Source: an uncultured Alphaproteobacteria bacterium (GTDB taxonomy: Bacteria; Pseudomonadota; Alphaproteobacteria; Rs-D84; CACZYB01). Taken from it: a DNA stretch of 64,000 nucleotides. Position numbers and translations under genes: made by a program. The stretch is from the NCBI GenBank assembly GCA_944390685.1, contig CALXQL010000006.1, positions 24,108-88,107 on the forward strand. The letters run 5' to 3'. This document shows, piece after piece, positions 3,803-38,926 of the stretch. The notes under the pieces were generated by a model. The model saw nothing but the letters and a program-made list of their open reading frames with translations. It had not been told where the DNA came from and did not search any database. Every line of letters starts with the position of its first letter. Position 1 is the first letter of the stretch.

Positions 3803-5574
3803 ATGAAGTTATCAAAAATAAGAATAAAGAATTTTCGTGGTCACATTGATACAACTGTAAATATATCAAATTTAAATGTTATAATAGGACCAAATGATAT
3901 TGGAAAATCATCAATAATAGATGCTTTTGATATATATTTTAATGATTATCCAATAGATATTTCAGATGTAAACGTATTTATACCAGAAAATACGCCCAAA
4001 ATTGTTGAAATTTCTTGTTCTTTTATTGTTGATAAAAATGAGGCAGTTACACTAGACGCTAGTGAAAATACAGCAACATCTTTAGCTTCAGAATACTTAT
4101 TAAATAAAGATGGATTTCTTGAAATCTGTAAAAAATATGATTTTAGTACAAATAAAATAAAAAAAAGTATTCAGATTATAACAAAACACCCATCTAATTT
4201 TACACCTGCATTAATATTACAAAAAATAAACGATTTAAAAAAATTAGCTTCTGATAATAATATTACCCCAACTAATAATAATATAAAAAAAGACATAAGA
4301 AAAGCGATTTTTGAACAATATCCTAACTTAAATTGGGATAATGAATTTACTATTGAAGTAGAAGCAAAGGAAAACGATATTACACAAATTTTTAATAAAT
4401 TCAAAGACGATTTTCCAACATATATGGTTTTTCGTGCAGATAGAACAAATACAGATAAAGATAAAGATAAAGAAGTTAGTGAAACCACAAATGCAATTAC
4501 AAAAAGTGTTGTATCAGAACTAGAAAACGAATTTAATAATATAAAAAATAAAATAACAGATCAAATAAATACTTTAGCACAAAAAACACTCGAAAAACTA
4601 AAATTATTCGATGAAAATATATCAAATAGTTTAAAATCAAATATACAAACAAAACAACTATCCTCTTTATTTTCATTTACATTTGATTGTGATAATGGAA
4701 TTTCATTTAATAAAAGAGGAAGTGGTGTAAAAAGATTAATGTTATTAAGTTTTTTTCTTGCTGATGCAGAACAAAAAAATACAAACAAAACATTATATAC
4801 GCAATAGAAGAACCTGAAACATCACAACATCCAGATTATCAAATAATGTTAATAAATTCTTTAAAAGATTTATCAGATAAAAATAACAGACAAATAATAA
4901 TCACTACACATACTCCAGAAATAGTAAAAATTGTAAAAAAAGAAAATCTAATCTTTTTAAATAAAGATAGATCAAATATACTAAAGATACAACAAAATGA
5001 AACTTTAGAAATCAAAAAAATTGTTGATAATTTAGGAATTCTACCATATGTATCTTATAAAGAGGTAATATTTGTAGAAGGAAAAACTGATATAAGTTTT
5101 CTTAAAAATTTAAATCAATTTCAAGACTGTAAGAATATAATTGATATAACGCAATTTTCAATTATAGAATTAAATGGTTGTGCTAATGTTGATACATGGA
5201 TAAAAAATGACTATTTAGAAAATTCAAATATTAAACGTTTATATTTTCGAGATAGGAATAATAATAAAATAGAAACGGAAAATCAAAAAAACAATGTTAT
5301 AATAACAAAAAAAAGAGAAATAGAAAATTATATACCATATAATTTAATTGAAAACTACTTCAATATTGCTTTCACAAAAACAGAAAAAGAAAATTGGAAT
5401 GATATAGATGTTACTAAACATATACGAGGTAAAATAAATAACAAATACAAAAATGAAGATATAAAAAGAATATTAGAATCTCGAGATATATGGAATAATT
5501 TAAAATTACCAGATGATAGTATGAATGAAATAAAAGAATGGTTTAATAAAATAAAAAACTATTTTGATGACTAA
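3803..5574 (+). pseudogene. OLD-family ATP-dependent endonuclease (ABC-type ATPase plus C-terminal Toprim; class-1 OLD or fused PARIS AriAB-like), interrupted by a +1/-1 frameshift in an A7 tract
   Basis: N-terminus MKLSKIRIKNFRGHIDTTVNISNLNVIIGPNDIGKSSIIDAF is the OLD/AAA_15 Walker A. The ABC signature-like KRGSGVKRLMLLSFFLA lies before the break. Part 1 runs 3803..4807 in frame 2 and ends TLYTQ*. A different frame (frame 1) is open from 4765 after an in-frame TGA (4762-4764) and reads IIYAIEEPETSQHPDYQIM...QIIITTHTPE (Walker B and H-loop) up to the ATG at 4846 where the ORF track starts the second ORF. The second part also carries VIFVEGKTDISFLKNL, a Toprim motif. The reading frames swap at acaaaaaaatacaaacaaaa (4771..4790). 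Confidence 0.7.
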
Positions 5575-5798: not shown

Positions 5799-6053
5799 TT
5801 ATTCTGCAAATGCTATAAATTGTAAATGCTTTTTATTCCAATGCCTACCAAGAATATTGCACTCTATCTGCTTCATTATTCGTTTCAGATTGTCTATTGA
5901 TGTGTATAAATTACTACTTTTTATATTCTCATGAAACTGTATTGTTAGCATATAGTTCGGCTTATATGTATCATCTATCCATTTCTTTAGCTCTTCCTTT
6001 ATTCTCATATTATTATGATATTGCTTCCATCTAGTTACCATACTTTCTATCAT
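5799..6053 (-). CDS. Short ORF (84 aa), possible N-terminal remnant of an HUH rolling-circle replication/relaxase-type protein
   Basis: MLTIQFHE resembles Rep motif I (uTuTu). About 40 aa downstream, KKHLQFIAF resembles motif II (an HuQ variant). The ORF stops before any motif III tyrosine. Weak, motif-level only. Confidence 0.3.
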   Translation of the reverse strand: MIESMVTRWKQYHNNMRIKEELKKWIDDTYKPNYMLTIQFHENIKSSNLYTSIDNLKRIMKQIECNILGRHWNKKHLQFIAFAE

Positions 6054-6421
6054 TCATATTATCATTATGCTTAATTGTGACTAGAATTATAACAAACAAA
6101 AATTTAAGGTTTTGCGTTATAAAAGTTATGACAGACTTTCTCCAAACAGAAAGATTTACAGCCTATGTATACAAAAAGTCCTATTATAATTTTCTAGAAC
6201 CGAACAATCTTCTAAAACTAATAACTATTTAACAAAGTACTAAAAAAACGGTTTTACTTAAGTTAGTAACCATATGGTAACGAACTCTATTATAAAAAAA
6301 GGCCCCCATTTAACGAGAGCCTTTTTAGTAAGTTTATCACTAAAAAATTAACAATTTAATACATTACAATGAAAATTTTCTAAATACAAAATATCCTTAC
6401 ATGTAAAAGGGCTTTTTTTAT

Positions 6422-6551
6422 AATTAATGCTTCTCACAAAAATATGAGGTCTTAGCTCTGGATCCACAACTCAGGTCCCCTGTCCCTCCCTAGAGGTAGG
6501 GGCTAGGTTGTTATACCAGTATCCAGGGCTCCCATCATAAAAGCATTAATT
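6422..6551. repeat. GC-rich palindromic structured element of about 130 bp (candidate small RNA, att-site remnant or MITE/RPE-like element)
   Basis: Perfect 11-bp inverted repeats aattaatgctt (6422..6432) and aagcattaatt (6541..6551) flank a GC-rich core (6446..6536), in sharp contrast to the AT-rich surroundings. The inner stem gctctggat (6455..6463) pairs with atccagggc (6521..6529) allowing one G-U pair. Further internal hairpins include CCCUA/UAGGG. Confidence 0.45.
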
Positions 6552-6588
6552 AAGAAAAATTTTCACTGTACAAATTAATAAGACTAAA

Positions 6589-6777
6589 ATGAAAAGTAGT
6601 TTTACAATTTTAGGTGAATATATACAATCTAAATATCCAGATAAAACACTCACAGATTATGAAACAGATGTAATGGTAAATAATATAGTTCAGTTTTTTA
6701 CCATAGGTGCAAAAATGGCTTATAACTATAAGAAAAACGGCGAAAATCTACAAAAAACTGCGTACAAATCAAAATAA
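6589..6777 (+). CDS. Short ORF (62 aa) of unknown function inside the degraded island
   Basis: ORF only. It lies immediately upstream of the recombinase fragments and may be another fragment. Confidence 0.25.
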   Translation: MKSSFTILGEYIQSKYPDKTLTDYETDVMVNNIVQFFTIGAKMAYNYKKNGENLQKTAYKSK

Positions 6778-6809
6778 TCCCTGTATAATATTAATATAAA
6801 GAATATGAA

Positions 6810-7632
6810 ATGATTAAATTTATAAAACAACAAAGAGGTAAAATACTTATTGTTGCTAATACAATTGATCGTATTCAAAGAAGATTTAAAGAATACAGTT
6901 TGTTAGATGATCTTCGTCGTGATAATAAAATTGAAATGTATTTTATAAGAGAACGTTTAACTATTAACTCTAAATCAAACGGTTATGAAATTGGTACATG
7001 GACTCAGGGTATTATGTGAGTTCAACAATATGTTATGCAATCAAGTGATAACATAAAAAGAGCAAATAACGAAAGCCGTGATAAAGGTAGATGGTTGCAT
7101 AAAGCCCTATTTGATACATTAATTATAAAGATTAATCAACTCTTGCAATGGTTAAGATAGATTCAATAAAAGGTTCTCTTTTTGCTCAAATGTTAGAGCA
7201 ATTGCTAACTATGCAAATAAAATAGGTCTTACAACTGGCTCTGGTAGAAAAATAACTAAAAAGAATGCAAATTATATGATACATAATACTTTCTATTATG
7301 GAGTAATGAGAACTATTGATGTATACAGAGCTCATACATGTGGTAATTTAATTACTAAAGAATTGTTTGATAAAATTCAAGAAGTAGCTTCAGGAAAATG
7401 CAAACCTTCATTTACAAAAAGAGCTGATACATTTATTTTTAGTGGACTATTAAGATGTGCTATATGTGGTTGTGCTATAACACCTGAAAGACATACTAAA
7501 AATAATGGAAAAACTTATACATACTTAAGATGCTTTCATTATGATCATAATTGTAAGCAACTATTATTGAATAAAAATGTCGTTTTACAACAAATAAAAG
7601 AAAAAATTTTTGATAAAAAAGAGAGATTTTAA
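6810..7632 (+). pseudogene. Serine recombinase (resolvase-type catalytic domain, recombinase domain and zinc beta-ribbon) broken into at least three frames
   Basis: 6810..7019 encodes GKILIVANTIDRIQRR (the DRLxR motif of the resolvase catalytic domain) and KIEMYFIRERLTINSKSNGYEIG. 7021..7275 in other frames gives ...GLTTGSGRKITKKNANYMIHNTFYYGVM (recombinase domain). 7276..7632 gives FSGLLRCAICGCAITPERH...YTYLRCFHYDHNC, the zinc beta-ribbon of large serine recombinases. In-frame stops lie between the pieces, and no intact N-terminal Ser nucleophile region was found. Confidence 0.65.
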
Positions 7633-7729
7633 AAATCATAAATTCGAACTCTTTGCTTGATGGAAAAAAGATAGTATTTTCAATAGCTAAGCATTTGATT
7701 TGATAATAAAAAATGATGAAAGTGTAAGA

Positions 7730-7806
7730 TGGTGGGTGATGAGAGACTCGAACTCCCGACCCTCTCGGTGTAAACGAGATGCTCTAGCCAACTGAGCTAA
7801 TCACCC
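7730..7806 (-). tRNA. tRNA-Val (anticodon TAC)
   Basis: Minus-strand sequence GGGTGATTAGCTCAGTTGGCTAGAGCATCTCGTTTACACCGAGAGGGTCGGGAGTTCGAGTCTCTCATCACCCACCA. 7-bp acceptor stem, D loop AGCTCAGTTGG, anticodon loop TTTACAC, T loop GGTTCGAGTC, CCA encoded. Confidence 0.9.
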
Positions 7807-7905
7807 GAAAGATGTTATTATTATATAACTCTTTTTTCTTTTTTCAAGTCTTTTTTCTTGTTTTTTACATTTTTTATTTTATAGTCTTATTTAGAGGTAT
7901 TTATT

Positions 7906-18912: not shown

Positions 18913-19729
18913 TTATTATTATTGTATCCATAGTATTACAATTTAAGTTATTAAACTCTAATAATGCATTATTTTTTATTATATTATTTGCTTCTTCAGA
19001 ATCTAATATAGTTTTAAATGATTGGCAAGATTCAATTTGGTGGCCTAATTTAGATAAAGATAAACCTAAATAATAAAGACTATTATATAAATTTTCGTCA
19101 TCAGGATAGGTTTTTAGTAATTCAGCAAATTTATTAGTAGATTCTTTGAAATCATTATTGTTATAACTTTTTATACCTTCATCATATAAAATTTGGGCTT
19201 CATTTTTAAATGTAGGTGTGGGTGTAGGTGTGATAAGTAAATTATCACTTGGTTGATTTGGTAAAATATTATTATCAATGTTATTTGTGTCCAAAAGACT
19301 TAATGGTTCCGATGTCGCAATTGTGGACATCGTATCATTTAATTTTAACATATTATCTTGAAGTGTCATCATATCCGCCTTTAATGAAGTAGTCATATCA
19401 TCTTTTAATAATTGCGTGATATTTTTAAGATTTTGCATTTCCAATTCATATTGCGCCATTTTTTTATTATTTTCTTCTTGGCGTTTTTTCAATTCCTCTA
19501 TGTTATAATTTAATTGTTGTATTATAGATGAGGTTTCTCTTCTTAATTGTGCTTGATTATAATTACTTTGTTCTGTTGCATTGGTTATAGATTTTATTGT
19601 ATCTTCCAAATCAGATAATTTCATTTCAATATTTATAAAAGCATCATCATCTTTGCTTGATTGTATTGTTTGTGCAAATGTAGATTCAATACAGAAAAAA
19701 CTTAATACAAAAAATATAATATATTTCAT
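18905..19729 (-). CDS. Tol-Pal system protein CpoB/YbgF-like (signal peptide, coiled coil, C-terminal TPR)
   Basis: Signal peptide MKYIIFFVLSFFCIESTFAQ, coiled-coil heptads, a PTPTPT linker, and C-terminal TPR-like ILYDEGIKSYNNNDFKESTNKFAELLKTYPDDENLYNSLYYLG. Confidence 0.5.
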   Translation of the reverse strand: MKYIIFFVLSFFCIESTFAQTIQSSKDDDAFINIEMKLSDLEDTIKSITNATEQSNYNQAQLRRETSSIIQQLNYNIEELKKRQEENNKKMAQYELEMQNLKNITQLLKDDMTTSLKADMMTLQDNMLKLNDTMSTIATSEPLSLLDTNNIDNNILPNQPSDNLLITPTPTPTFKNEAQILYDEGIKSYNNNDFKESTNKFAELLKTYPDDENLYNSLYYLGLSLSKLGHQIESCQSFKTILDSEEANNIIKNNALLEFNNLNCNTMDTIIINE

Positions 19730-19801
19730 AGGTTCCCCCTTATTTTTATTTAATATTAAAATATTATATTTATATTGGCAATAAAAAATAAGTGGTAAGG
19801 T

Positions 19802-21772
19802 TTAAATATCTAAATCTGTTGTAAATTTGGCTCCTTCTTGTATAAATCTAAATCTATATTCCGGATTTTTTCCCATAAGATTTGAAACAAGTGTTTTTGT
19901 ATTTTGAAGATCTTCCATTCCCTCTTCTGTTTTAGGGGGAATTTCAATTTTCAATAATGTTCTGGTTTTTGGATCCATTGTTGTTTCTTTTAATTGCGAA
20001 GGCATCATTTCCCCTAGCCCTTTAAAACGATTTATTTCAACCTTTTTACCTTTAAACTTTGTTTGGATTATTTTATCCTTTTCTTCATCACTCATTGCAT
20101 AAAAATATGATTTTCCATCCGTAATCTTAAATAATGGAGGAAGTGCAATATATAAATGTCCGTGTTCAATCAATGTTGGCATTTGTTCAAAGAAAAATGT
20201 CATAAGTAATGATGCAATATGCGCCCCATCCACATCAGCATCGGTCATTATTATTATTTTATCATAGCGCAATTTTTCTTCATTATAATCACGACCAGTG
20301 CCGCAACCTATTGCCTCAGTTATATCTTGAATTTCCTTATTGGCATTTAATTTTTCATTGGAAGAACTTGCAACATTTAATATTTTTCCACGAAGTGGTA
20401 GTATCGCTTGAGTTAGACGATTCCTTGCTTGTTTTGCGGAACCGCCAGCGGAATCTCCTTCCACAATAAAGATTTCAGTGCCTTGTCTATCCTTACTTGA
20501 ACAATCCGCAAGTTTTCCAGGTAAGCGAAGTTTTTTTGTTGGTGTTTTTCTTATAGTTTCTTTTAATTTTTTTAATTTCAATCTAGCTTCACTTTTTTCA
20601 ATTATATAATCAAGCAATTGATTAGCACGTGCCGGATTAGATGTTAAGAAATAATCAAAATAATCCTTTATTGCATTATCAACTAAACGAGTAGCTTCAC
20701 TTGATGAAAATTTATCCTTTGTTTGTCCTTGGAATTGTGGATTTTTGAAAAATAATGATAAAATCACAACTGCATCATCAAATATATCTTCATTTATTAT
20801 ATTAGTAAATTTTTTATTACCTATCATATCGGCAAATGACTTTAATGATCTTGATATAGCCGATTTAAAACCAGTTTCATGGGTTCCACCTTCAGGAGTT
20901 GGAATAGTATTACAATAGGAATTAAAAAATCCACCTTCATTCCCATCTTCATGTGGGGTATCAATCCAAGTAATGGCACATTCCACCTTTCCCATATCAT
21001 TTGCAAGATTTGATTCAGTATAAAATATTTCATCAATAACCTTTGGACGGGATTTTATTGTTTCACTTAGAAAATCCTTTATCCCCTCTTTAAAACATAA
21101 AATTGTTTCATGAGGAACATTCATATCGCTAGTTAATAATTCTTCATCACATTTCCAATTTATTTTAACCCCTTTGAACAAAAAAGCCTTTGAACGAATC
21201 ATGCGATAAAGTTTTAATGGCTTAAATAAATTTGTTTGACCCAAAATATCAGCATCAGGTTTGAATGTGATTTTTGTTCCAGTTTTTTTTGTTTTACCAA
21301 TTTGTTCCAATTTGGATGTAGGTATACCCCTTGAATAAGTTTGCTTATAGATACCACCATCCCTTGATACTTCAATATCCATAAATTCGGATAAGGCATT
21401 TACAACACTTGAACCGACACCATGTAATCCACCGGAAGTTTGATAAATTTTATTTGAAAACTTTCCACCACTATGAAGAGTCGTTAAGATAACTTCCAAA
21501 GCCGATTTATCCGGATATTTTGGATGATTATCAACTGGAATACCCCTTCCATTATCGGTAATAGTAATTGTATTATCCCGTTTTAATTCAACCCATATTT
21601 CATCAGCAAAGCCTGCACCAACCTCATCCATTGAATTATCAACTATTTCACTTACAAGATGATGAAGTGCAGTAGAGTCAATTCCCCCTATATACATACC
21701 TGGACGAAGGCGAACCGGCTCCAATCCTTCTAATACTTGAATATCCTTTGCTGAATATGAATTATTTGTCAT
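19802..21772 (-). CDS. parE: Type IIA topoisomerase ATPase subunit B, most likely topoisomerase IV ParE (no GyrB-type insertion)
   Basis: 656 aa. Has GLEPVRLRPGMYIGG, the GHKL ATPase, the Toprim motif EGDSAGGSAKQARNR, and PLRGKILN. This length fits proteobacterial ParE. A short GyrB cannot be excluded. Confidence 0.7.
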   Translation of the reverse strand: MTNNSYSAKDIQVLEGLEPVRLRPGMYIGGIDSTALHHLVSEIVDNSMDEVGAGFADEIWVELKRDNTITITDNGRGIPVDNHPKYPDKSALEVILTTLHSGGKFSNKIYQTSGGLHGVGSSVVNALSEFMDIEVSRDGGIYKQTYSRGIPTSKLEQIGKTKKTGTKITFKPDADILGQTNLFKPLKLYRMIRSKAFLFKGVKINWKCDEELLTSDMNVPHETILCFKEGIKDFLSETIKSRPKVIDEIFYTESNLANDMGKVECAITWIDTPHEDGNEGGFFNSYCNTIPTPEGGTHETGFKSAISRSLKSFADMIGNKKFTNIINEDIFDDAVVILSLFFKNPQFQGQTKDKFSSSEATRLVDNAIKDYFDYFLTSNPARANQLLDYIIEKSEARLKLKKLKETIRKTPTKKLRLPGKLADCSSKDRQGTEIFIVEGDSAGGSAKQARNRLTQAILPLRGKILNVASSSNEKLNANKEIQDITEAIGCGTGRDYNEEKLRYDKIIIMTDADVDGAHIASLLMTFFFEQMPTLIEHGHLYIALPPLFKITDGKSYFYAMSDEEKDKIIQTKFKGKKVEINRFKGLGEMMPSQLKETTMDPKTRTLLKIEIPPKTEEGMEDLQNTKTLVSNLMGKNPEYRFRFIQEGAKFTTDLDI

Positions 21773-21878: not shown

Positions 21879-23522
21879 ATGAATTTTCAAGAAACTCAAT
21901 CTTTCAATCTTCTTAAAAAACACAAAGTCTTTTTAGATGATTTTTCAATTATGGATTTATTTAATCAAAATCCAGCCAGATTTGAAGAATTTTCGACAAG
22001 TCTTGGGGATATTGTTTTTGATTATTCCAAAAATAAAATTGATAAAAAAGCTTTGGATTTTTTATTTAAAATTGCAAATAATCTTAATTTAAAAGAAAAA
22101 ATTCAAGATATGTTTAATGGTGTAAAAATAAATACTTCCGAAAATAGAGCTGTGCTACATACTTTGCTCAGAGATAATATATCAAAAAATATAATGGTTG
22201 ATGGGGTAAATGTTATTGAATATATCAAACTTAATTATCAAAAAATGATAAATTTTGCAGATGATGTTCAAAAAGGCATTTATAAGGGTATTAAAGGTGA
22301 TAGAATTTTAGATGTCGTAAATATTGGTATTGGTGGATCATATCTTGGCTCTAAAATGGTTATAGAAGCTTTAAAACCTTATAAAACTCCTCTTATCAAT
22401 TTTCATTTTATTTCAAATATTGATTCTACTGATTTAACCGAAGTATTAAAGAAAATTGAACCAGAAACTACTTTATTCATTGTTTCAAGTAAAACTTTTA
22501 CGACAGATGAAACTATGACTAATGCCTTATCCGCGAAAGAATGGCTTGTCAATAAATTAGGGGAAAAAGCTGTCAGTAAACATTTTTGTGCCGTTTCAAC
22601 AAACAAAAAGGAAATTGCTAAATTCGGTATAAATCCCGATAATGTTTTTGAATTTGGTGATTATATAGGGGGAAGGTATTCTTTGTGGTCTCCTATTGGA
22701 CTTCCTATTTGTATTGCAATTGGTAAAAATAATTTTCAAAAATTATTAGATGGGGCAAGTATTGCCGATGAACATTTTAAAAATTGTGATTTTGAACATA
22801 ATATTCCTGTATTAATGGGATTGATTTCCGTTTGGAATGTTAATTTTATGAATGTGGTTGCTGAAGCTGTATTGCCTTATGATAATTATTTGAAATTTTT
22901 ACCTATGTATCTTCAACAGCTTGTTATGGAAAGTAATGGTAAATCAGTTGATAGGCAAGGCAATTTCGTTCAATATCAAACCTCTCCTATCATATTTGGA
23001 GATGAGGGAACCAATGGTCAACATTCATTTTATCAATTATTGCATCAAGGAACTGAAAATATTTCTTGTGATTTCATTTTACCTATATTTTCTCATAATG
23101 AAGTTGGTGAACATCAACTTAAATTACTTGCCAATGGAATTGCCCAAAGTGAAGCATTGATGAAAGGAAAGTCCAAAGAAGAAGCTTTCGATGAAATGGT
23201 AAGTCAAGGTATCTCACAAGATAATATTTCAAAGTTATTACCTTATAAAGAATTTAAAGGTGATAGACCTTCAAATACTTTCTTAATAAAACAAATTACT
23301 CCTGAAACATTAGGTATGTTGGTTGCATTTTATGAACATAAAACTTTTGTAGAAGGTGTGTTATGGGATATCAATTCTTTTGATCAATTTGGAGTTGAAC
23401 TTGGAAAACAACTTGCAAAAAATATTGTAAAGGATTTGAAAAGTGATGAAGGCATTAGTAAACATGATTCTTCTACAACTGGTATCATTACTATGGTAAA
23501 AGCTTTAAGAAATAATAAATAA
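21879..23522 (+). CDS. pgi: Glucose-6-phosphate isomerase
   Basis: 547 aa with IGIGGSYLG, FIVSSKTFTT and GQHSFYQLLHQG. Confidence 0.9.
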   Translation: MNFQETQSFNLLKKHKVFLDDFSIMDLFNQNPARFEEFSTSLGDIVFDYSKNKIDKKALDFLFKIANNLNLKEKIQDMFNGVKINTSENRAVLHTLLRDNISKNIMVDGVNVIEYIKLNYQKMINFADDVQKGIYKGIKGDRILDVVNIGIGGSYLGSKMVIEALKPYKTPLINFHFISNIDSTDLTEVLKKIEPETTLFIVSSKTFTTDETMTNALSAKEWLVNKLGEKAVSKHFCAVSTNKKEIAKFGINPDNVFEFGDYIGGRYSLWSPIGLPICIAIGKNNFQKLLDGASIADEHFKNCDFEHNIPVLMGLISVWNVNFMNVVAEAVLPYDNYLKFLPMYLQQLVMESNGKSVDRQGNFVQYQTSPIIFGDEGTNGQHSFYQLLHQGTENISCDFILPIFSHNEVGEHQLKLLANGIAQSEALMKGKSKEEAFDEMVSQGISQDNISKLLPYKEFKGDRPSNTFLIKQITPETLGMLVAFYEHKTFVEGVLWDINSFDQFGVELGKQLAKNIVKDLKSDEGISKHDSSTTGIITMVKALRNNK

Positions 23523-23546
23523 ACTCCCAATTGGGAGTTTTTTTAT
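23520..23546. terminator. Bidirectional rho-independent terminator between convergent pgi and alr
   Basis: Perfect 18-bp palindrome aactcccaattgggagtt (23522..23539), flanked by A-run and T-run. Confidence 0.65.
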
Positions 23547-24853: not shown

Positions 24854-27793
24854 TTGAATATGAAACTATCTAATATATTAAGTAATATTGAATACTCTTC
24901 TATAAATTTTAATGATATTGATATAAAAGGTGTAGAAAATAACTCATCTAAAATTAAAGACGGGTATATTTTTCTTGCCATTAAAGGAAATAATTTTAAT
25001 GGTGTAGATTTCATCCAAAATGCAATAGATAATGGTGCTGTTGCTATAATCGTTGAAAAATCAAATTCTTTAAATACTGATTTATATCCAAATACTACAA
25101 TCATTTTTGTTGATAATATAAGGATTGTGGAATTCAAACTTGCAAGTATCTTTTACCCAAATAATATAAAATCTATTGTTGCAGTAACGGGAACCAATGG
25201 TAAAAGTTCGGTCGTAAATTTCGTAAGACAAATGTGGACTTTCCTTAATATAAAATCAGCTTCAATTGGAACTTTGGGTGTGCAAACGGAAAATAATGTA
25301 GGGGGAAAATCTTTAACCACACCAGATGCAATTGAACTTCATAAGCATTTACAAAAACTTGATAATGATGGTATTACAAATGTTGCATTAGAAACTTCTT
25401 CTCATGGCATATCTCAACATAGAGTAGATGGAATTAAAATAACAGCTGCTGCATTCACCAATATTTCAAATGACCATCTTGATTATCATAAAACCATTGA
25501 TGAATATTTTAATGCTAAATTAAGATTATTTTCTCAATTGCTTGATAAAGATGGTGTTGCAGTTATCAATATTGATGATGGATATGGGCTTAAAGTAGTT
25601 GATGTATGTAAAAATAGAGGTATTAAAGTCATAGCCTATGGTAAAAATGATAATGCTGATATAAAATTTATTGATTATAAGATAGAAGATGATTTCCAAA
25701 AGGTGAAAATTTCAGTATTTGGTGAAGAATTTAATCTCACTCTTAATCTTATTACCGAATTCCAAGTATACAATCTGCTTTGTGCTTTGGGCTTATTTAT
25801 GGCATCTGTTGATGATTGGAAAAAAATTCTTCCTTTTTTAAGTTCCATTAAAAATGAAAAAGGTAGAATTGAATATGTTGCTACTACACCAAATGGGGCA
25901 AAAATTTATGTGGATTTTGGCCATAATGGTGATGGACTTAAAAAAGTATTAACTCAATTCAGACCTTATGTAAAACAAAATCTTATTTGTATTGCTGGAT
26001 GTAGTGGCAATAGACCTGAAATTCGCAGAATTGAAATGGGACAAGTTTTAAATCAATATGCAGATAAAGTCGTCATAGTTGATGATAATCCTAGAAATGA
26101 AGATCCAAAAGTCATTAGGGATACTTTATTCAAATATTGCCCAAAAGCTATGGTCATACCTGATAGGTATAAGGCTATTGAAGAAGTAATTGATACTTCA
26201 AGAGTTTGGGATAGCATTATAATTTGTGGAACTTTATTTGAAAAAGATAAGGAATTCATTAGGGAAAAATTAAAACCTCAAATGCGAAAACTTGATGAAT
26301 TATTACATGATGCAAATATCAATATTACAAATGTTCCAAGTATTCCTATATATAATGTATCTTCTGATTCCAATAATATAATTGATGGTAGTATTTTTGT
26401 TGGAATTAAAGGATTTAATCTTGATGGGGCTAATTTCTCATTTGATGCAATAAATAAAGGGGCAAAAGTTATTGTAGTTGCAAAAAACTATAATTTTGAT
26501 GATAAAACTCTTAATTTAATTGATGAAAAAAATGTAATTGTTATAAAAGTGGATAATACAAGAAAAGCTTTTGATGATTTGATGTTTGCCTTTTATAATA
26601 AAACTCAACCTGATACAATTGTCGCTGTAACAGGAAGTAGTGGTAAGTCTTCTGTTGTTGATTTTTGTCGTCAAATTTGGGGCTTGATGAAGCTTCCTGC
26701 AATAAGTTCTGGAACCATTGGAATTATTGCTGAAAATGTTTATTCAAAAAAAGAAATCATTAAATACAATGATGCTGATTATACCACACCTGGAAATGGT
26801 GAAGCATATAAAATGTTTAAATATTTTAAAGAAAAAGGTGTAAATTATGCTGCAATTGAACTTTCATCTCATGGTCTTGATCAACTTCGCATGAATAATC
26901 TTAAAATATCTTCCGCCGGATTTACAAATCTTGGCACTGATCATATGGATTTTTATGGCGGTGCAGAAAAGTATTTGGAATCTAAATCTAAATTATTTAA
27001 GGAAAATTTGGATATAAATGGAACTGCTGTTTTAAATGCTGATATTGATGAATATTCATATTTAAAAAATATTTGTGATGAAAGAGGGGTTAAATCCATA
27101 TCTTATGGTAAAAATGGTAAAGAACTAAAAATCATCTCGCAAGAAGTTTCTTTAAGCGGTCAAAAAGTGGAAATTGAACTTTTCGGTAAAAGGTATAAGT
27201 ATGATTTAAAAATTTTAGGTTCTTTCCAACTTTATAATCTTCTTTGTGCCATTGGTTTGGTCGCATCTTCCACAAATAATTGGCAAAATGTATTACCTAT
27301 GCTTGATAATGTAAGAAATGCTATGGGTAGATTGGAATATATGGGCAAAACAAAAAAAGGTGCCTTCATTTATATTGATTTTGCTTATAAAGGTGATGCT
27401 TTATTCAATACATTAAAAACTCTTCGTTCCATGAGTGATAAAAAAATTATATGTGTATTTTCTACTTGTGGTGATGTATATGAAACTCGTAGAAGACAAG
27501 AATTAGGACAAGCAGCTCAAGAACTTTCCGATATTGCTATATTAACTGATGATAGCCCTAGAAATGAAGATCCTCAAAAAATAAGAAATGAAGTATTGGC
27601 TTATTGTCCAAAAGCAATTGAAATAAAAACTGGTAGAAAAGATGCTATTCGTAAAGCTTTTGAATTAGCAGGTTGTGATGATATCATTTTGATTGCTGGA
27701 AAAGGTCATGAAGATTATATCACTATTAAAGATAAAAACATACCTTATACAGATCAAAATTCTGTTATAGAATTATTAAAAGAAGAGATTTAA
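24854..27793 (+). CDS. murE: Tandem fusion of two complete MurE-type UDP-MurNAc-tripeptide ligase modules (979 aa)
   Basis: Module 1 (about aa 1-475) has VTGTNGKSS, TTPDA, ETSSHGISQHR, FTNISNDHLDYH, DFGHNGD and DDNPRNED. Module 2 (about aa 478-979) has VTGSSGKSS, TTPGN, ELSSHGLDQLR, FTNLGTDHMDFY, DFAYKGD, DDSPRNED and AGKGHEDY. Both N-termini align (MKLSNIL... and MRKLDELL...). The MurF-specific features (NxNNxIG, DDSYNAN) are absent from both. Confidence 0.8.
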   Translation: MNMKLSNILSNIEYSSINFNDIDIKGVENNSSKIKDGYIFLAIKGNNFNGVDFIQNAIDNGAVAIIVEKSNSLNTDLYPNTTIIFVDNIRIVEFKLASIFYPNNIKSIVAVTGTNGKSSVVNFVRQMWTFLNIKSASIGTLGVQTENNVGGKSLTTPDAIELHKHLQKLDNDGITNVALETSSHGISQHRVDGIKITAAAFTNISNDHLDYHKTIDEYFNAKLRLFSQLLDKDGVAVINIDDGYGLKVVDVCKNRGIKVIAYGKNDNADIKFIDYKIEDDFQKVKISVFGEEFNLTLNLITEFQVYNLLCALGLFMASVDDWKKILPFLSSIKNEKGRIEYVATTPNGAKIYVDFGHNGDGLKKVLTQFRPYVKQNLICIAGCSGNRPEIRRIEMGQVLNQYADKVVIVDDNPRNEDPKVIRDTLFKYCPKAMVIPDRYKAIEEVIDTSRVWDSIIICGTLFEKDKEFIREKLKPQMRKLDELLHDANINITNVPSIPIYNVSSDSNNIIDGSIFVGIKGFNLDGANFSFDAINKGAKVIVVAKNYNFDDKTLNLIDEKNVIVIKVDNTRKAFDDLMFAFYNKTQPDTIVAVTGSSGKSSVVDFCRQIWGLMKLPAISSGTIGIIAENVYSKKEIIKYNDADYTTPGNGEAYKMFKYFKEKGVNYAAIELSSHGLDQLRMNNLKISSAGFTNLGTDHMDFYGGAEKYLESKSKLFKENLDINGTAVLNADIDEYSYLKNICDERGVKSISYGKNGKELKIISQEVSLSGQKVEIELFGKRYKYDLKILGSFQLYNLLCAIGLVASSTNNWQNVLPMLDNVRNAMGRLEYMGKTKKGAFIYIDFAYKGDALFNTLKTLRSMSDKKIICVFSTCGDVYETRRRQELGQAAQELSDIAILTDDSPRNEDPQKIRNEVLAYCPKAIEIKTGRKDAIRKAFELAGCDDIILIAGKGHEDYITIKDKNIPYTDQNSVIELLKEEI

Positions 27794-30637: not shown

Positions 30638-32773
30638 ATGAATAATATCATAAAATTATGTGAAATACTGGGGCTTTCTTCTTCATTCATTGATAAAATG
30701 GGGGATCTACATAATACCTCTTTTAATGTTAGAAAAAAATTCTTACAATCAATTGGTATAAATGATTTTTCCAGTAAAAATATTAACTCTTTAATACATA
30801 AGTTGGAACATCAAATATTTGTTAATAAATGTAAAAATGTAGTATCTTTTTTTAAAAGCGATATAAAGGAATTTGATATTTATATACCTTTTGATTATAT
30901 GGAAAATACTCTTAATTATACTTGTTTTAAAGATGGATTAAAGTTATTTTCACATAAAATTTTTATAAAAAAAGATATGCAAACTGAATATATTATCGTT
31001 GATAATATTAAAATCGCTCATATAAAAATTATTTTAAAAATGCCAAAGGAGTTTGGTTATTATGATTTATCTTTTTCAATTAAAGATTTAGTGTTTTCAT
31101 CGTTTATTATTTATTCTCCCGATACAGCATATCTTCCCGATTGTATAGAAAAAAAGAAGGAAAAACTCCTTGGAATTGCAATACAACTTTATGCTATATC
31201 TTCATCAAATAATATGGGCGTAGGGGATTTTTCCGATCTTAAAAATATTATGAAATTGGCAAGCGAAAATAATATTGATTTTGTAGGGATAAATCCCTTG
31301 GGAGTTATGTATTATCAAAGTAAAGATGATGTTTCTCCTTATAGAGTGTTTAGTCGTGAATTTATCAATTATCTTTATATTGATTTAAAAAAAGTTTATG
31401 AATTCAAATTTATAAATATCCCTATTAGTATTCAAAAAAAAATAAATACTTTGAAAATTTGTGATAAGGTTGATTATTTCAATATATTAACTATTAAATT
31501 ATCATTACTTTTCAAAATGTATAATGTCTTTATTAAAAATAAAAATTCAAATAGATTTATTAAATTTCAAAACTTTAAAAAGGATAAAGGTGAAAATCTT
31601 TATAATCTTTGTTTATTTGAAACTTTGATTGAAAAAAATAATCCCGATTGGCAAAAATGGCAAAAGGATTTTAAAAACCTAAAATCAAAAAAAATACTTA
31701 ATTTTGCAAATGAAAATAAAAAACGTATTGATTTTTATGCCTATTGTCATTGGATTGCTGAAACTCAACTTAAAAATGTTTATGATTTTGCAAAAAAATT
31801 AAATATGAAAGTAGGCCTTTATCTTGATATGCCAGTAGGGGCTGCATCAAATGGGGTAGAAGTATGGCAAAATCAAGAATTATTTGCTAAAAATATGGAT
31901 ATTGGGACTCCTCCTGATACTATAAGACCAAAAGGGCAAACTTGGGGATTGGTACCTATGATTCCATATAAACTCATTGAAAATAAGTATAAGTTTATTA
32001 TCAATCTTTTTAGAAAAAATATGCTTTATGCCGGTGCTATTAGAATAGATCATGCCTTAGGTTTAATGCGATTATTTTGGGTAAATGATGATAATAAAGG
32101 TGCCTATGTTTATTATGATTTCAAAACTATGATTGCAATTTTATCAATAGAATCTCATCTTAATAAATGTTTAATCATTGGTGAAGATTTAGGTAATGTC
32201 CCAGATGGTTTTAGAGAAATATTAGCTAGTCATCATATTCTTTCCAATAAAATATTATTTAGGCAAAAAGATCATGATGGGGAATTTTTATCTACTAAAA
32301 AATATCCTTATCTTTCTTTATCCCAAGTGAGTACTCATGATCAAGCTACATCTTGTGGATTTTGGGTGGGAGAAGATATTCATACAAACTTTAAATGTAA
32401 ATTATTTCCTAAAATCTCTCAATATAACGATAATTTAAAGTTAAGGCAAAATGAAAGAATTGCTTTTTATAAAGCTCTTAATAAATCAAATTGTTTTTAT
32501 AATAATAAACAACATATAATGAAATTTATTGATGGAGCAGTTCCTCCTTATAATATTGAATATTCCTTTAATATGTATGGGGCAAAAACCAATAGTGCAT
32601 TATTTATTATTAGAATTGAAGATATGGTAAGACAAATAGCCATGGAAAATGTGCCGGGAACAATTTATCAATATCCAAATTGGAAAATAAAACTTCCACG
32701 GGATATTAAACTCATTTTAAAGAAAAACTCCCATTTCATTCGTAAAATATTATATTATAGAAATATGAAATAA
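30638..32773 (+). CDS. malQ: 4-alpha-glucanotransferase (amylomaltase)
   Basis: GH77 motifs GIAIQLYAISS, RIDHALGLMRLFWV and GEDLGNVPDGF. Start moved to the Met at 30638, which has an aagagggg RBS. Confidence 0.8.
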   Translation: MNNIIKLCEILGLSSSFIDKMGDLHNTSFNVRKKFLQSIGINDFSSKNINSLIHKLEHQIFVNKCKNVVSFFKSDIKEFDIYIPFDYMENTLNYTCFKDGLKLFSHKIFIKKDMQTEYIIVDNIKIAHIKIILKMPKEFGYYDLSFSIKDLVFSSFIIYSPDTAYLPDCIEKKKEKLLGIAIQLYAISSSNNMGVGDFSDLKNIMKLASENNIDFVGINPLGVMYYQSKDDVSPYRVFSREFINYLYIDLKKVYEFKFINIPISIQKKINTLKICDKVDYFNILTIKLSLLFKMYNVFIKNKNSNRFIKFQNFKKDKGENLYNLCLFETLIEKNNPDWQKWQKDFKNLKSKKILNFANENKKRIDFYAYCHWIAETQLKNVYDFAKKLNMKVGLYLDMPVGAASNGVEVWQNQELFAKNMDIGTPPDTIRPKGQTWGLVPMIPYKLIENKYKFIINLFRKNMLYAGAIRIDHALGLMRLFWVNDDNKGAYVYYDFKTMIAILSIESHLNKCLIIGEDLGNVPDGFREILASHHILSNKILFRQKDHDGEFLSTKKYPYLSLSQVSTHDQATSCGFWVGEDIHTNFKCKLFPKISQYNDNLKLRQNERIAFYKALNKSNCFYNNKQHIMKFIDGAVPPYNIEYSFNMYGAKTNSALFIIRIEDMVRQIAMENVPGTIYQYPNWKIKLPRDIKLILKKNSHFIRKILYYRNMK

Positions 32774-38225: not shown

Positions 38226-38831
38226 ATGGCTTTGTTTAAAAAAAATAAAAAAATTTCTGTTAGTGTTTTTTGTGGATCCAGAAATGGAAAAAGTAAGGAA
38301 TATTTAAATCTTGCAAAACATACTGGTGAACTTCTTGCTAAAAATAATATGCGTTTGGTTTATGGTGCAGGTGGTAAAGGTTTAATGGGGGCCGTTGCAA
38401 ATGGAGTGATTGAAAATAATGGTGAAATTTATGGTGTGACAACAGAAGTTATTGCCGCATTTGAACAGCCAATTGCCGGAACAAAAACAAAAATCGTTAA
38501 AACTTTACAAGATAGAAAGGAACTTTTTATTAAAAATTCTAATGCCTTTATAATACTTCCTGGTGGATTTGGAACTTTTGATGAATTGTTTGATTTATTA
38601 GTAGGAAAAGAAATTTATGATAAACATAAAGAAGTAGTGCCAGGTAGCCGTCTTTCGGAAACAAGACCTATCATACTCATAAATAAAAATAAATTTTTTA
38701 CTCCTTTTGTTAATCTTGTTGATTCAATAATTAAAGAAGGTTTTATGCATCAACAAAATAAAAAAATGTATAAATTAGTTGATACACCTGAAGAGGCTAT
38801 CAAAATTATTAAAAATTATATGAAAAAATAA
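38226..38831 (+). CDS. LOG-family cytokinin riboside 5'-monophosphate phosphoribohydrolase-like protein
   Basis: VYGAGGKGLMGAV and LPGGFGTFDELFD match the PGGxGTxxE LOG motif. Confidence 0.8.
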   Translation: MALFKKNKKISVSVFCGSRNGKSKEYLNLAKHTGELLAKNNMRLVYGAGGKGLMGAVANGVIENNGEIYGVTTEVIAAFEQPIAGTKTKIVKTLQDRKELFIKNSNAFIILPGGFGTFDELFDLLVGKEIYDKHKEVVPGSRLSETRPIILINKNKFFTPFVNLVDSIIKEGFMHQQNKKMYKLVDTPEEAIKIIKNYMKK

Positions 38832-38926
38832 TAATAAATTATTGATTTTTATTATTACCTATTATATCATTTAATAAGTCTGTAATAAAAAAACAGCGGT
38901 TAACTTAATAAATTAGGGGTTATCAA

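Follow-up and report, generated by a model that had tools for sequence, protein, structure and literature searches.

Bacterial MITEs are recognized by a common signature: they are small, end in inverted repeats, duplicate their target, fold into a long hairpin and are co-transcribed with their neighbors (PMC3184786). Correia/NEMIS elements are co-transcribed in this way, and their RNA hairpins affect the expression of neighboring genes (PMC3184786). REP sequences are GC-rich and hairpin-forming extragenic elements (PMC3733652), a description that would also suit the element considered here. In the following we describe an apparent GC-rich foldback insertion within a window of AT-rich DNA (the window being the whole stretch analyzed, 64 kb in length), examine the island in which it lies together with related loci that are free of it, and weigh the explanations that might account for its presence.

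The element resides in a decayed defense island at tRNA-Val, roughly 8.5 kb in length, in which a TauD-like ORF, an S51 peptidase, a split OLD nuclease, an 84-aa ORF, the element, a 62-aa ORF, the wreck of a recombinase gene and tRNA-Val(tac) follow one another in that order (Table 1). The heptamer TGGTGGG, which is the complement of the tRNA-Val 3' end CCCACCA, is found at 7730-7736 and a second time at L028:4424-4431, ~730 nt to the left of window position 1 and just past the recA terminator; its recurrence beyond that terminator suggests an island of ~8.5 kb stretching from recA to tRNA-Val, with crossover exactly at the tRNA's 3' terminus. The recombinase pseudogene has lost residues 1-68, including the catalytic serine, and residues ~353-466 (~114) are deleted; a TGA replaces Trp and two frameshifts are also present, and the operon formed by the small ORF and the recombinase is dead. 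An alternative genetic code, in which TGA would encode Trp in the broken recombinase, was considered and rejected, as long ORFs add up to 58 kb under table 11 and 5 of the 55 terminate in TGA; the standard code is in use.

Decay extends to other genes of the island. The OLD-family nuclease, composed of an AAA_15 ATPase and an OLD-like TOPRIM domain, is split into ORFs at 3803-4807 (334 aa) and 4846-5574 (242 aa) in different frames, and since the AAA_15 profile is divided between both ORFs, the region 3803-5574 is one more pseudogene of this decaying island. The 84-aa ORF (5799-6053, minus strand) is an orphan without Pfam, PHROG or NCBIfam match, although by eye its motifs YMLTIQF ... FIAFAE may recall the N-terminus of an HUH-type Rep protein. 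Elsewhere in the window, genes for ParE (Gram-negative type), MsbA and AsmA mark the host as Gram-negative and proteobacterium-like, and there is a 979-aa ORF (24854-27793, plus strand) whose N-terminal half (16-468) matches MurE and whose C-terminal half (about 490-975) matches related Mur-ligase-family models. Against the bifunctional MurE/MurF model this ORF scores 724 bits, below the 1,023-bit cut-off, with only residues 23-468 aligned; MurE appears to be fused here to another ligase of the Mur type, possibly MurF.

Table 1. Positions in the window of the element, its parts and the neighboring island features
Feature	Position	Strand	Basis
Bidirectional terminator-like hairpin	6293..6326		aligns with the palindrome of relatives; Rfam hits at E<=10 fall here
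Promoter-like hexamers CTTACA-17-TATAAT	6396..6424	+	10/12 match; ends 4 nt before the insert
Left TAATTAA, putative target-site duplication	6421..6427		single TAATTAA at the homologous position of L005
Left arm of the 11-bp inverted repeat (aattaatgctt)	6422..6432		6 bases of duplicated target plus 5 (TGCTT) of the insert terminus
Inserted segment TGCTT...AAGCAT	6428..6546		missing from all related loci; blastn and junction alignment
GC-rich inner hairpin, loop CCTA	6454..6530		MFE pair list
Stems of the inner hairpin	6454-6463/6521-6530, 6466-6471/6506-6511, 6477-6482/6497-6502, 6485-6488/6493-6496		MFE pair list
Right arm of the 11-bp inverted repeat (aagcattaatt)	6541..6551		sequence and MFE pair list
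Right TAATTAA, putative target-site duplication	6547..6553		sequence, junction alignment and L005 blastn
62-aa ORF, conserved small partner (55 aa in relatives)	6589..6777	+	homologues precede a large serine recombinase
Large serine recombinase pseudogene	6798..7691	+	tblastn with intact relatives; Pfam Resolvase and Zn_ribbon_recom fragments; translation
tRNA-Val(tac), integration target and right edge of the island	7730..7806	-	tRNA searches; recombinase genes of relatives overlap the tRNA 3' end

The sequence of the element is as the original prediction had described it, with perfect 11-bp inverted repeats placed around a GC-rich core in an AT-rich genome: GC content is 56% in the core (6446-6536) and 28% in the whole window. 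The repeats lengthen to 19 nt at 89% complementarity (6414-6432 / 6541-6559), the 119-nt insert is 49% GC overall, and of all 60-nt stretches in the 64 kb the one highest in GC falls within the element (0.60, compared to 0.52-0.57 in the three tRNA genes). A 9-bp inner stem that had likewise been proposed (gctctggat/atccagggc, 6455-6463 / 6521-6529) does exist, but is made up of eight Watson-Crick pairs and one T-G wobble. Stops occur in all six frames, and the longest open stretch, of 30 codons, is without a start. A scan of the window and of related loci for other GC-rich hairpins returned only tRNAs and coding regions.

Folded as RNA, 6422-6551 reaches -45.4 kcal/mol on the plus strand (z -4.74, 0/200 shuffles as good) and -44.7 kcal/mol on the minus strand (z -3.36), and its folding energy per nucleotide is the strongest among the 17 GC peaks of the window, exceeding that of the tRNA genes. 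The MFE structure is a single extended, interrupted hairpin of 47 pairs, 43 Watson-Crick and four G-U, with the latter divided two per orientation so that neither strand is favored; the hairpin is imperfect, with bulges of up to 7 nt, and in the centroid fold its GC-rich inner part persists even without the outer arm. Under DNA energy parameters the fold of the 119-nt insert comes to -15.6 kcal/mol (z -1.66), and when the element is aligned strictly against its own reverse complement, the 11-bp arms are all that is recovered (score 22 vs 17.5 +/- 4.3 shuffled), which together mark it as unexceptional as a DNA palindrome. What sets the element apart is its GC content together with its folding energy as RNA; it is not a near-perfect palindrome at the DNA level. 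In this latter respect it is outscored by far by long AT-rich palindromes that lie within or next to gene ends, at 19706-19823, 23515-23546, 38806-38877 and 31446-31522; the second of these, placed between genes that converge, is clearly a bidirectional terminator.

Comparison with related loci was made possible by the genes 3' of the element. Four homologous clusters of the 62-aa ORF (P0002-P0005) share 60-77% identity with it, and in their contigs we find a constant module consisting of a 55-aa ORF, a 57-nt spacer and an intact 513-aa Resolvase+Recombinase+Zn_ribbon protein, which was seen in at least five distinct sequence contexts. A genome scan added the rumen MAG 'uncultured proteobacterium RUG13061' (recombinase 91%) and a Bacteroidales MAG (54%), while recombinase-based locus searches of JGI metagenomes and IMG/VR returned distant relatives only, or nothing. 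Among all related loci examined, none has the GC-rich element 5' of the small ORF.

The module has several features of its own. Its 55-aa partner ORF (MKSSFTQLKE...FFTIGAKMAYN), which always precedes the 513-aa large serine recombinase, is possibly a directionality factor or regulator. The module occupies 6589-7806 in the window and L016:8001-9814, L020:295-2108, L022:3785-5589 and L023:140-1969 in relatives, where the 3' end of the recombinase gene overlaps the 3' end of an opposite-strand tRNA, which is tRNA-Arg(acg) in three of the loci and, in L023, tRNA-Val(tac); in the window, tRNA-Val(tac) correspondingly adjoins the recombinase pseudogene. The cargo of this island family is interchangeable and defensive (OLD nuclease, MmeI-type RM, KAP NTPase, PLD and C5-methyltransferase), and the loci of the relatives are tRNA-targeting serine-recombinase islands with such interchangeable defense cargo.

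The closest relative, L005, whose recombinase shares 78-90% amino acid identity with the window pseudogene (tblastn), offers the one closely alignable empty site. By blastn, L005:504-758 matches window 6547-6803 at 78% identity, the match starting at the first base past the right end of the element. When 6428-6553 is cut out, the junction aligns to L005 with a score of 42 (23 +/- 3.8 in shuffles, z 5.0, 0/300), compared to just 31 when the element is retained; homology of the left flank taken alone is modest (z 2.3). The junction alignment reads ...AAAGGGC.TTTTT.TA..TAATTAA.AAAAATTT..., in which ...AAAGGGC-TTTTTTTA-TAATTAAGAAAAATTT on the window side faces ...AAAGGGCATTTTTATACTAATTAA-AAAAATTT in L005. 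TAATTAA thus stands on both sides of the insert in the window (TAATTAA[TGCTT...119 nt...AAGCAT]TAATTAA) and once in L005, as expected of a target-site duplication. Since the target is AT-rich and nearly palindromic, the length of this duplication is ambiguous (TA, TTAA, 7 or 8 bp, a range of 2-8 bp), and the 11-bp inverted repeat is mostly duplicated target with five bases of true terminus, leaving TGCTT/AAGCA (5-6 bp) as the inverted repeats of the insert proper. Farther upstream, the terminator-like hairpin of the window lines up with the palindrome/terminator of L005, which indicates that the region is collinear and that the element is extra; this hairpin is probably the decayed counterpart of the palindrome/terminator that relatives have 5' of the small ORF. 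Given the empty site in L005 and the flanking duplication, the segment 6428-6546 is, to judge by these alignments, an insertion relative to all relatives.

The original prediction proposed to check for a dispersed multicopy palindrome; searches for further copies showed the element to be single-copy in about 69 kb of its genome and gave no other copy in related loci or in exact-word scans. In the 64-kb window, neither blastn-short nor a scan that allowed 3 mismatches per 35 nt revealed a second copy, and none was present in 5 kb of additional genome on the left flank or in 115 kb of related loci. An exact 22-mer from the core had no match in 185,579 species genomes, JGI metagenomes and IMG/VR, a type of scan that diverged copies would escape, and four further exact 19-21-mers, sought in IMG/VR only, gave nothing apart from one 19-nt match. 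The latter, on a 1.2-kb GC-rich contig (L027:224-244), can be extended to 21 nt identical to part of the element's right arm, GGCTAGGTTGTTATACCAGTA, and, in view of its unrelated flanks, is probably due to chance. Blastn in distant mode returned no match to the element among plasmids and phages, and its concatenated six-frame translation matched none of 5.8 billion protein clusters, which disfavors a gene-invading element of the RPE type. As to a partner, no transposase bounded by similar ends came to light, the ends of the element have no counterpart elsewhere in the window, and no Y1 transposase was detected among the 10 island ORFs scanned. The element is present in at least six independent metagenome assemblies, with the exact 130-nt string in L001-L004, the 119-nt insert in L028 and the same gene spacing in L029; it is therefore fixed in the population and not an assembly artefact.

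Taking these results together, we conclude with moderate confidence that 6428-6546 is a non-autonomous foldback insertion of MITE type, either an orphan or of low copy number. This interpretation is ranked first because the segment, at 119 nt, is well under the ~200-400 bp limit of bacterial MITEs and, with stops in all six frames, has no transposase ORF, because it has terminal inverted repeats, if weakly so given their length, because its duplication is backed by an empty site, and because it folds into a long hairpin (47 pairs, z -4.7). The earlier suggestion of a MITE-like element is hence upheld in that the segment is an insertion with a TAATTAA duplication, but neither a second copy nor a partner transposase was found, and for this reason a one-off insertion is a serious rival.

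As a MITE-type element, the segment would have entered the window lineage after its split from the L005 lineage, at a point ~35 nt 5' of the start codon of the small ORF and just past a promoter-like -10 box, presumably mobilized in trans by a transposase cutting AT-rich targets with a stagger of 7-8 bp (or TA/TTAA). If the promoter-like site is active, transcription would run across the insert before reaching the small ORF, giving the transcript a highly stable hairpin (about -39 kcal/mol) in its 5' leader, one that would hinder expression of the recombinase module. The insertion may thereby have helped to silence the module, or may have been tolerated once the module was dead, and the element would now be neutral passenger DNA. 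Its GC-rich stems might reflect a need of such elements to fold, or else a recent foreign origin. The symmetric distribution of G-U pairs fits a foldback acting at the DNA level rather than a strand-specific RNA.

The strongest competitor to a MITE-type origin, rather doubtful although deserving of serious consideration, is a structural insertion that took place once and without transposition, whether through capture of templated or foreign DNA at repair, through a template-switch foldback, or as the footprint of a larger element since deleted. The short flanking repeat would then represent microhomology and not the product of a transposase, a role for which TAATTAA, as a low-complexity AT-rich word, could be suited. 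Such an event would agree with the one copy present in everything searched, with the very short terminal repeats of the insert itself, and with the frequency of indels in this decaying neighborhood, as seen in the losses from the recombinase and the split of the OLD nuclease. However, neither the surrounding genome, at 28% GC, nor any of the related loci offers a visible donor for a segment of 56% GC, and template-switch foldbacks begin as perfect palindromes, whereas bulges in the element reach 7 nt. Moreover, a clean 7-bp duplication in combination with terminal inverted repeats is the classic signature of transposition (PMC3184786).

A functional structured RNA carried on the insert, either as a small RNA gene or as a cis-acting 5'-leader hairpin that controls or stabilizes the transcript of the small ORF, appears improbable. 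What commends it are a GC content and a folding energy per nucleotide above those of the tRNA genes of the window, the fold z-score of -4.7, the promoter-like site (10/12) immediately before the insert, and the identity of the element in at least six independent assemblies. The promoter-like site is, however, no better than chance for an AT-rich region (9 such sites found vs 9.1 expected in shuffles), no intrinsic terminator follows the element, and the operon that would be regulated is a pseudogene. At gathering score, Rfam reported only the three tRNAs in the whole window, and at E<=10 across 6250-6700 nothing on the element but a noise-level match to rliB of 14 bits. With no Rfam family matched, be it SRP, 6S, tRNA, tmRNA, riboswitches, ribozymes or mobile-element RNAs, with the element missing from every homologous locus, and hence not a conserved leader, and with G-U pairs symmetric between strands, the proposal of a candidate structured RNA was not sustained.

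Specific RNA and recombination-site identities were also considered. The original prediction had placed the element in no obvious RNA class and called it not tRNA-like, with which the negative results of Rfam, ARAGORN (no tRNA or tmRNA in the element) and tRNA alignments agree; a tRNA-derived att fragment was rejected as alignment to 8 tRNAs of the window and related loci gave z<2. SRP RNA, suggested by the rod shape and a shared UCAGGUCC, was discarded for want of a GNRA-type apical loop, an AGCA motif and a covariance-model match, and because the segment is an insertion. A retron msr-msd/ncRNA would account for the inverted repeats, but no RT domain is found in neighboring ORFs, and the genes 3' of the element (small ORF and recombinase) are conserved in relatives that do not have it, which also counts against a retron. 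The core consensus of an integron attC site is RYYYAAC ... GTTRRRY; CCACAAC and GTTGTTA in the element each break it at 2-3 positions, and no integron integrase lies nearby.

Slightly less probable again than a functional RNA, we suspect, is that the segment represents the first example of a group of mobile, GC-rich hairpins peculiar to very AT-rich uncultured rumen or gut proteobacteria, be it a bacterial counterpart of mitochondrial GC clusters or a hairpin-recognized HUH-type element, or that it is a mobile structured RNA gene with a function of its own. Other copies of such a mobile hairpin would be too diverged, or the genomes that hold them too poorly sampled, to be detected by exact-word scans.

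Upstream of the small ORF, relatives share a conserved 28-bp palindrome, composed of AACCTTGTGnCCAC and GTGGnCACAAGGTT, which is located at L007:~345-400, L006:~2027-2054, L005:409-436, L022:3637-3664, L020:~189-216 and, in L016, at both 1373-1400 and ~7866-7893. In L005 it has symmetric (compensatory) changes (CCTCGTG/CACGAGG) and is followed by a T-run; in L007, L020 and L022 it lies directly 3' of the stop codon of a small resolvase-type gene. Its left flank is wholly different between loci and its right flank conserved, its central asymmetric positions are inverted in L006 relative to L007, and the two copies in L016, 6.5 kb apart, bracket a cassette of KAP-NTPase, 548-aa and MmeI genes. 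The palindrome could be a site of cassette exchange or inversion, or just a terminator.

That the element is itself a recombination or operator site of the serine recombinase, as an expanded form of this 28-bp palindrome or as an att remnant, is very unlikely. Its general position 5' of the small ORF is similar, CATCATAAAA..GCA and a loose TGCT..ACA.AAA are common to the element and the flanks of the L007-type site, and its arms, with CTGGATnC...ACAAC, vaguely resemble the half-site GTGGAyACAAGG. When the element is aligned locally to the site in six variants, the best z is nonetheless only 2.8, with 7-10 of 300 shuffles as good, and no half-site GTGGnCACAAGGTT is found within 3 mismatches anywhere in the window. 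An expanded palindrome, considered on account of the shared CATCATAAAA..GCA, was rejected since this alignment is not significant and the arrangement is not collinear with the closest relative, the palindrome of relatives aligning instead with the hairpin at 6293-6326, ~100 nt 5' of the insert. Nor did the idea of an att remnant fare better: likeness to the palindromic site of relatives is confined to a 10-mer, there is no resemblance to any tRNA, and the recombinases of this family cross over at the island edge, in the 3' end of a tRNA gene. Finally, it is equally hard to credit that the element was ancestral to the module and precisely deleted through TAATTAA recombination in L005 and other relatives; palindromes between short direct repeats are deletion-prone and only L005 is a closely alignable empty site, but at least five independent losses (L005, the L006/L007 group, L016, L020 and L022) would be required as opposed to one gain.

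Taken alone, the element matters little, being a single small insertion in the dead recombinase operon of a decaying island. It does provide a worked example in which a GC-rich folded segment of an AT-rich genome need not be a functional RNA, and in which comparison with an empty site can settle the matter. Should further copies be found, the element would represent a new small mobile element in poorly known AT-rich rumen proteobacteria, as well as a marker of recent insertion. The island family may be of greater interest than the element, combining as it does a tRNA-targeting recombinase, a 55-aa partner, a palindromic site and interchangeable defense cargo.

Among described systems, the mobile GC clusters of yeast mitochondria are likewise short GC-rich palindromic insertions in an AT-rich genome, accompanied by short AT-rich duplications. 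They are organellar and eukaryotic, 30-60 bp in length and highly repeated, and the resemblance is one of description only, with no sign of relationship. REPINs, which are REP doublets of about 70-120 nt forming a long hairpin, are mobilized by RAYT. Unlike the element, REP sequences are high-copy, have a terminal GTAG or CGTC tag and a RAYT gene, and insert without target duplication; a REP/REPIN identity was rejected in light of the single copy, a GTAG that is only internal (6496-6499), the apparent 7-bp duplication and the lack of a Y1 match in the scanned ORFs.

Rickettsia palindromic elements (RPE, about 105-146 bp) are palindromic elements of similar size (PMC3184786). They differ in being multicopy and often in-frame within genes, with translations that are common in protein databases, whereas the translation of the element matches nothing. 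RPE are also GC-richer than their AT-rich host genome, a likeness to the element. The Correia/NEMIS elements of Neisseria, MITEs of about 104-157 bp, are comparable in that they are small, possess terminal inverted repeats and are inserted near genes (PMC3184786); their 26-bp terminal repeats, TA duplication, IHF site, promoters and hundreds of copies are features of their own, none of which was seen for the element. ERIC/IRU sequences of Enterobacteriaceae are present in tens to hundreds of copies with a consensus, as opposed to the one known copy of the element, with which they share no sequence similarity, and their duplication is TA, where that of the element is apparently 7-8 bp. In architecture, however, these MITE-type imperfect palindromes of about 127 bp are alike in size (119-130 nt for the element), in a whole-length imperfect hairpin, in having terminal inverted repeats with an AT duplication at the flanks, in lying next to a gene in intergenic DNA that is transcribed, and in the lack of an ORF (PMC3184786). 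On the basis of size and whole-length hairpin, the nearest analogues of the element would therefore appear to be ERIC (~127 bp), Correia and RPE.
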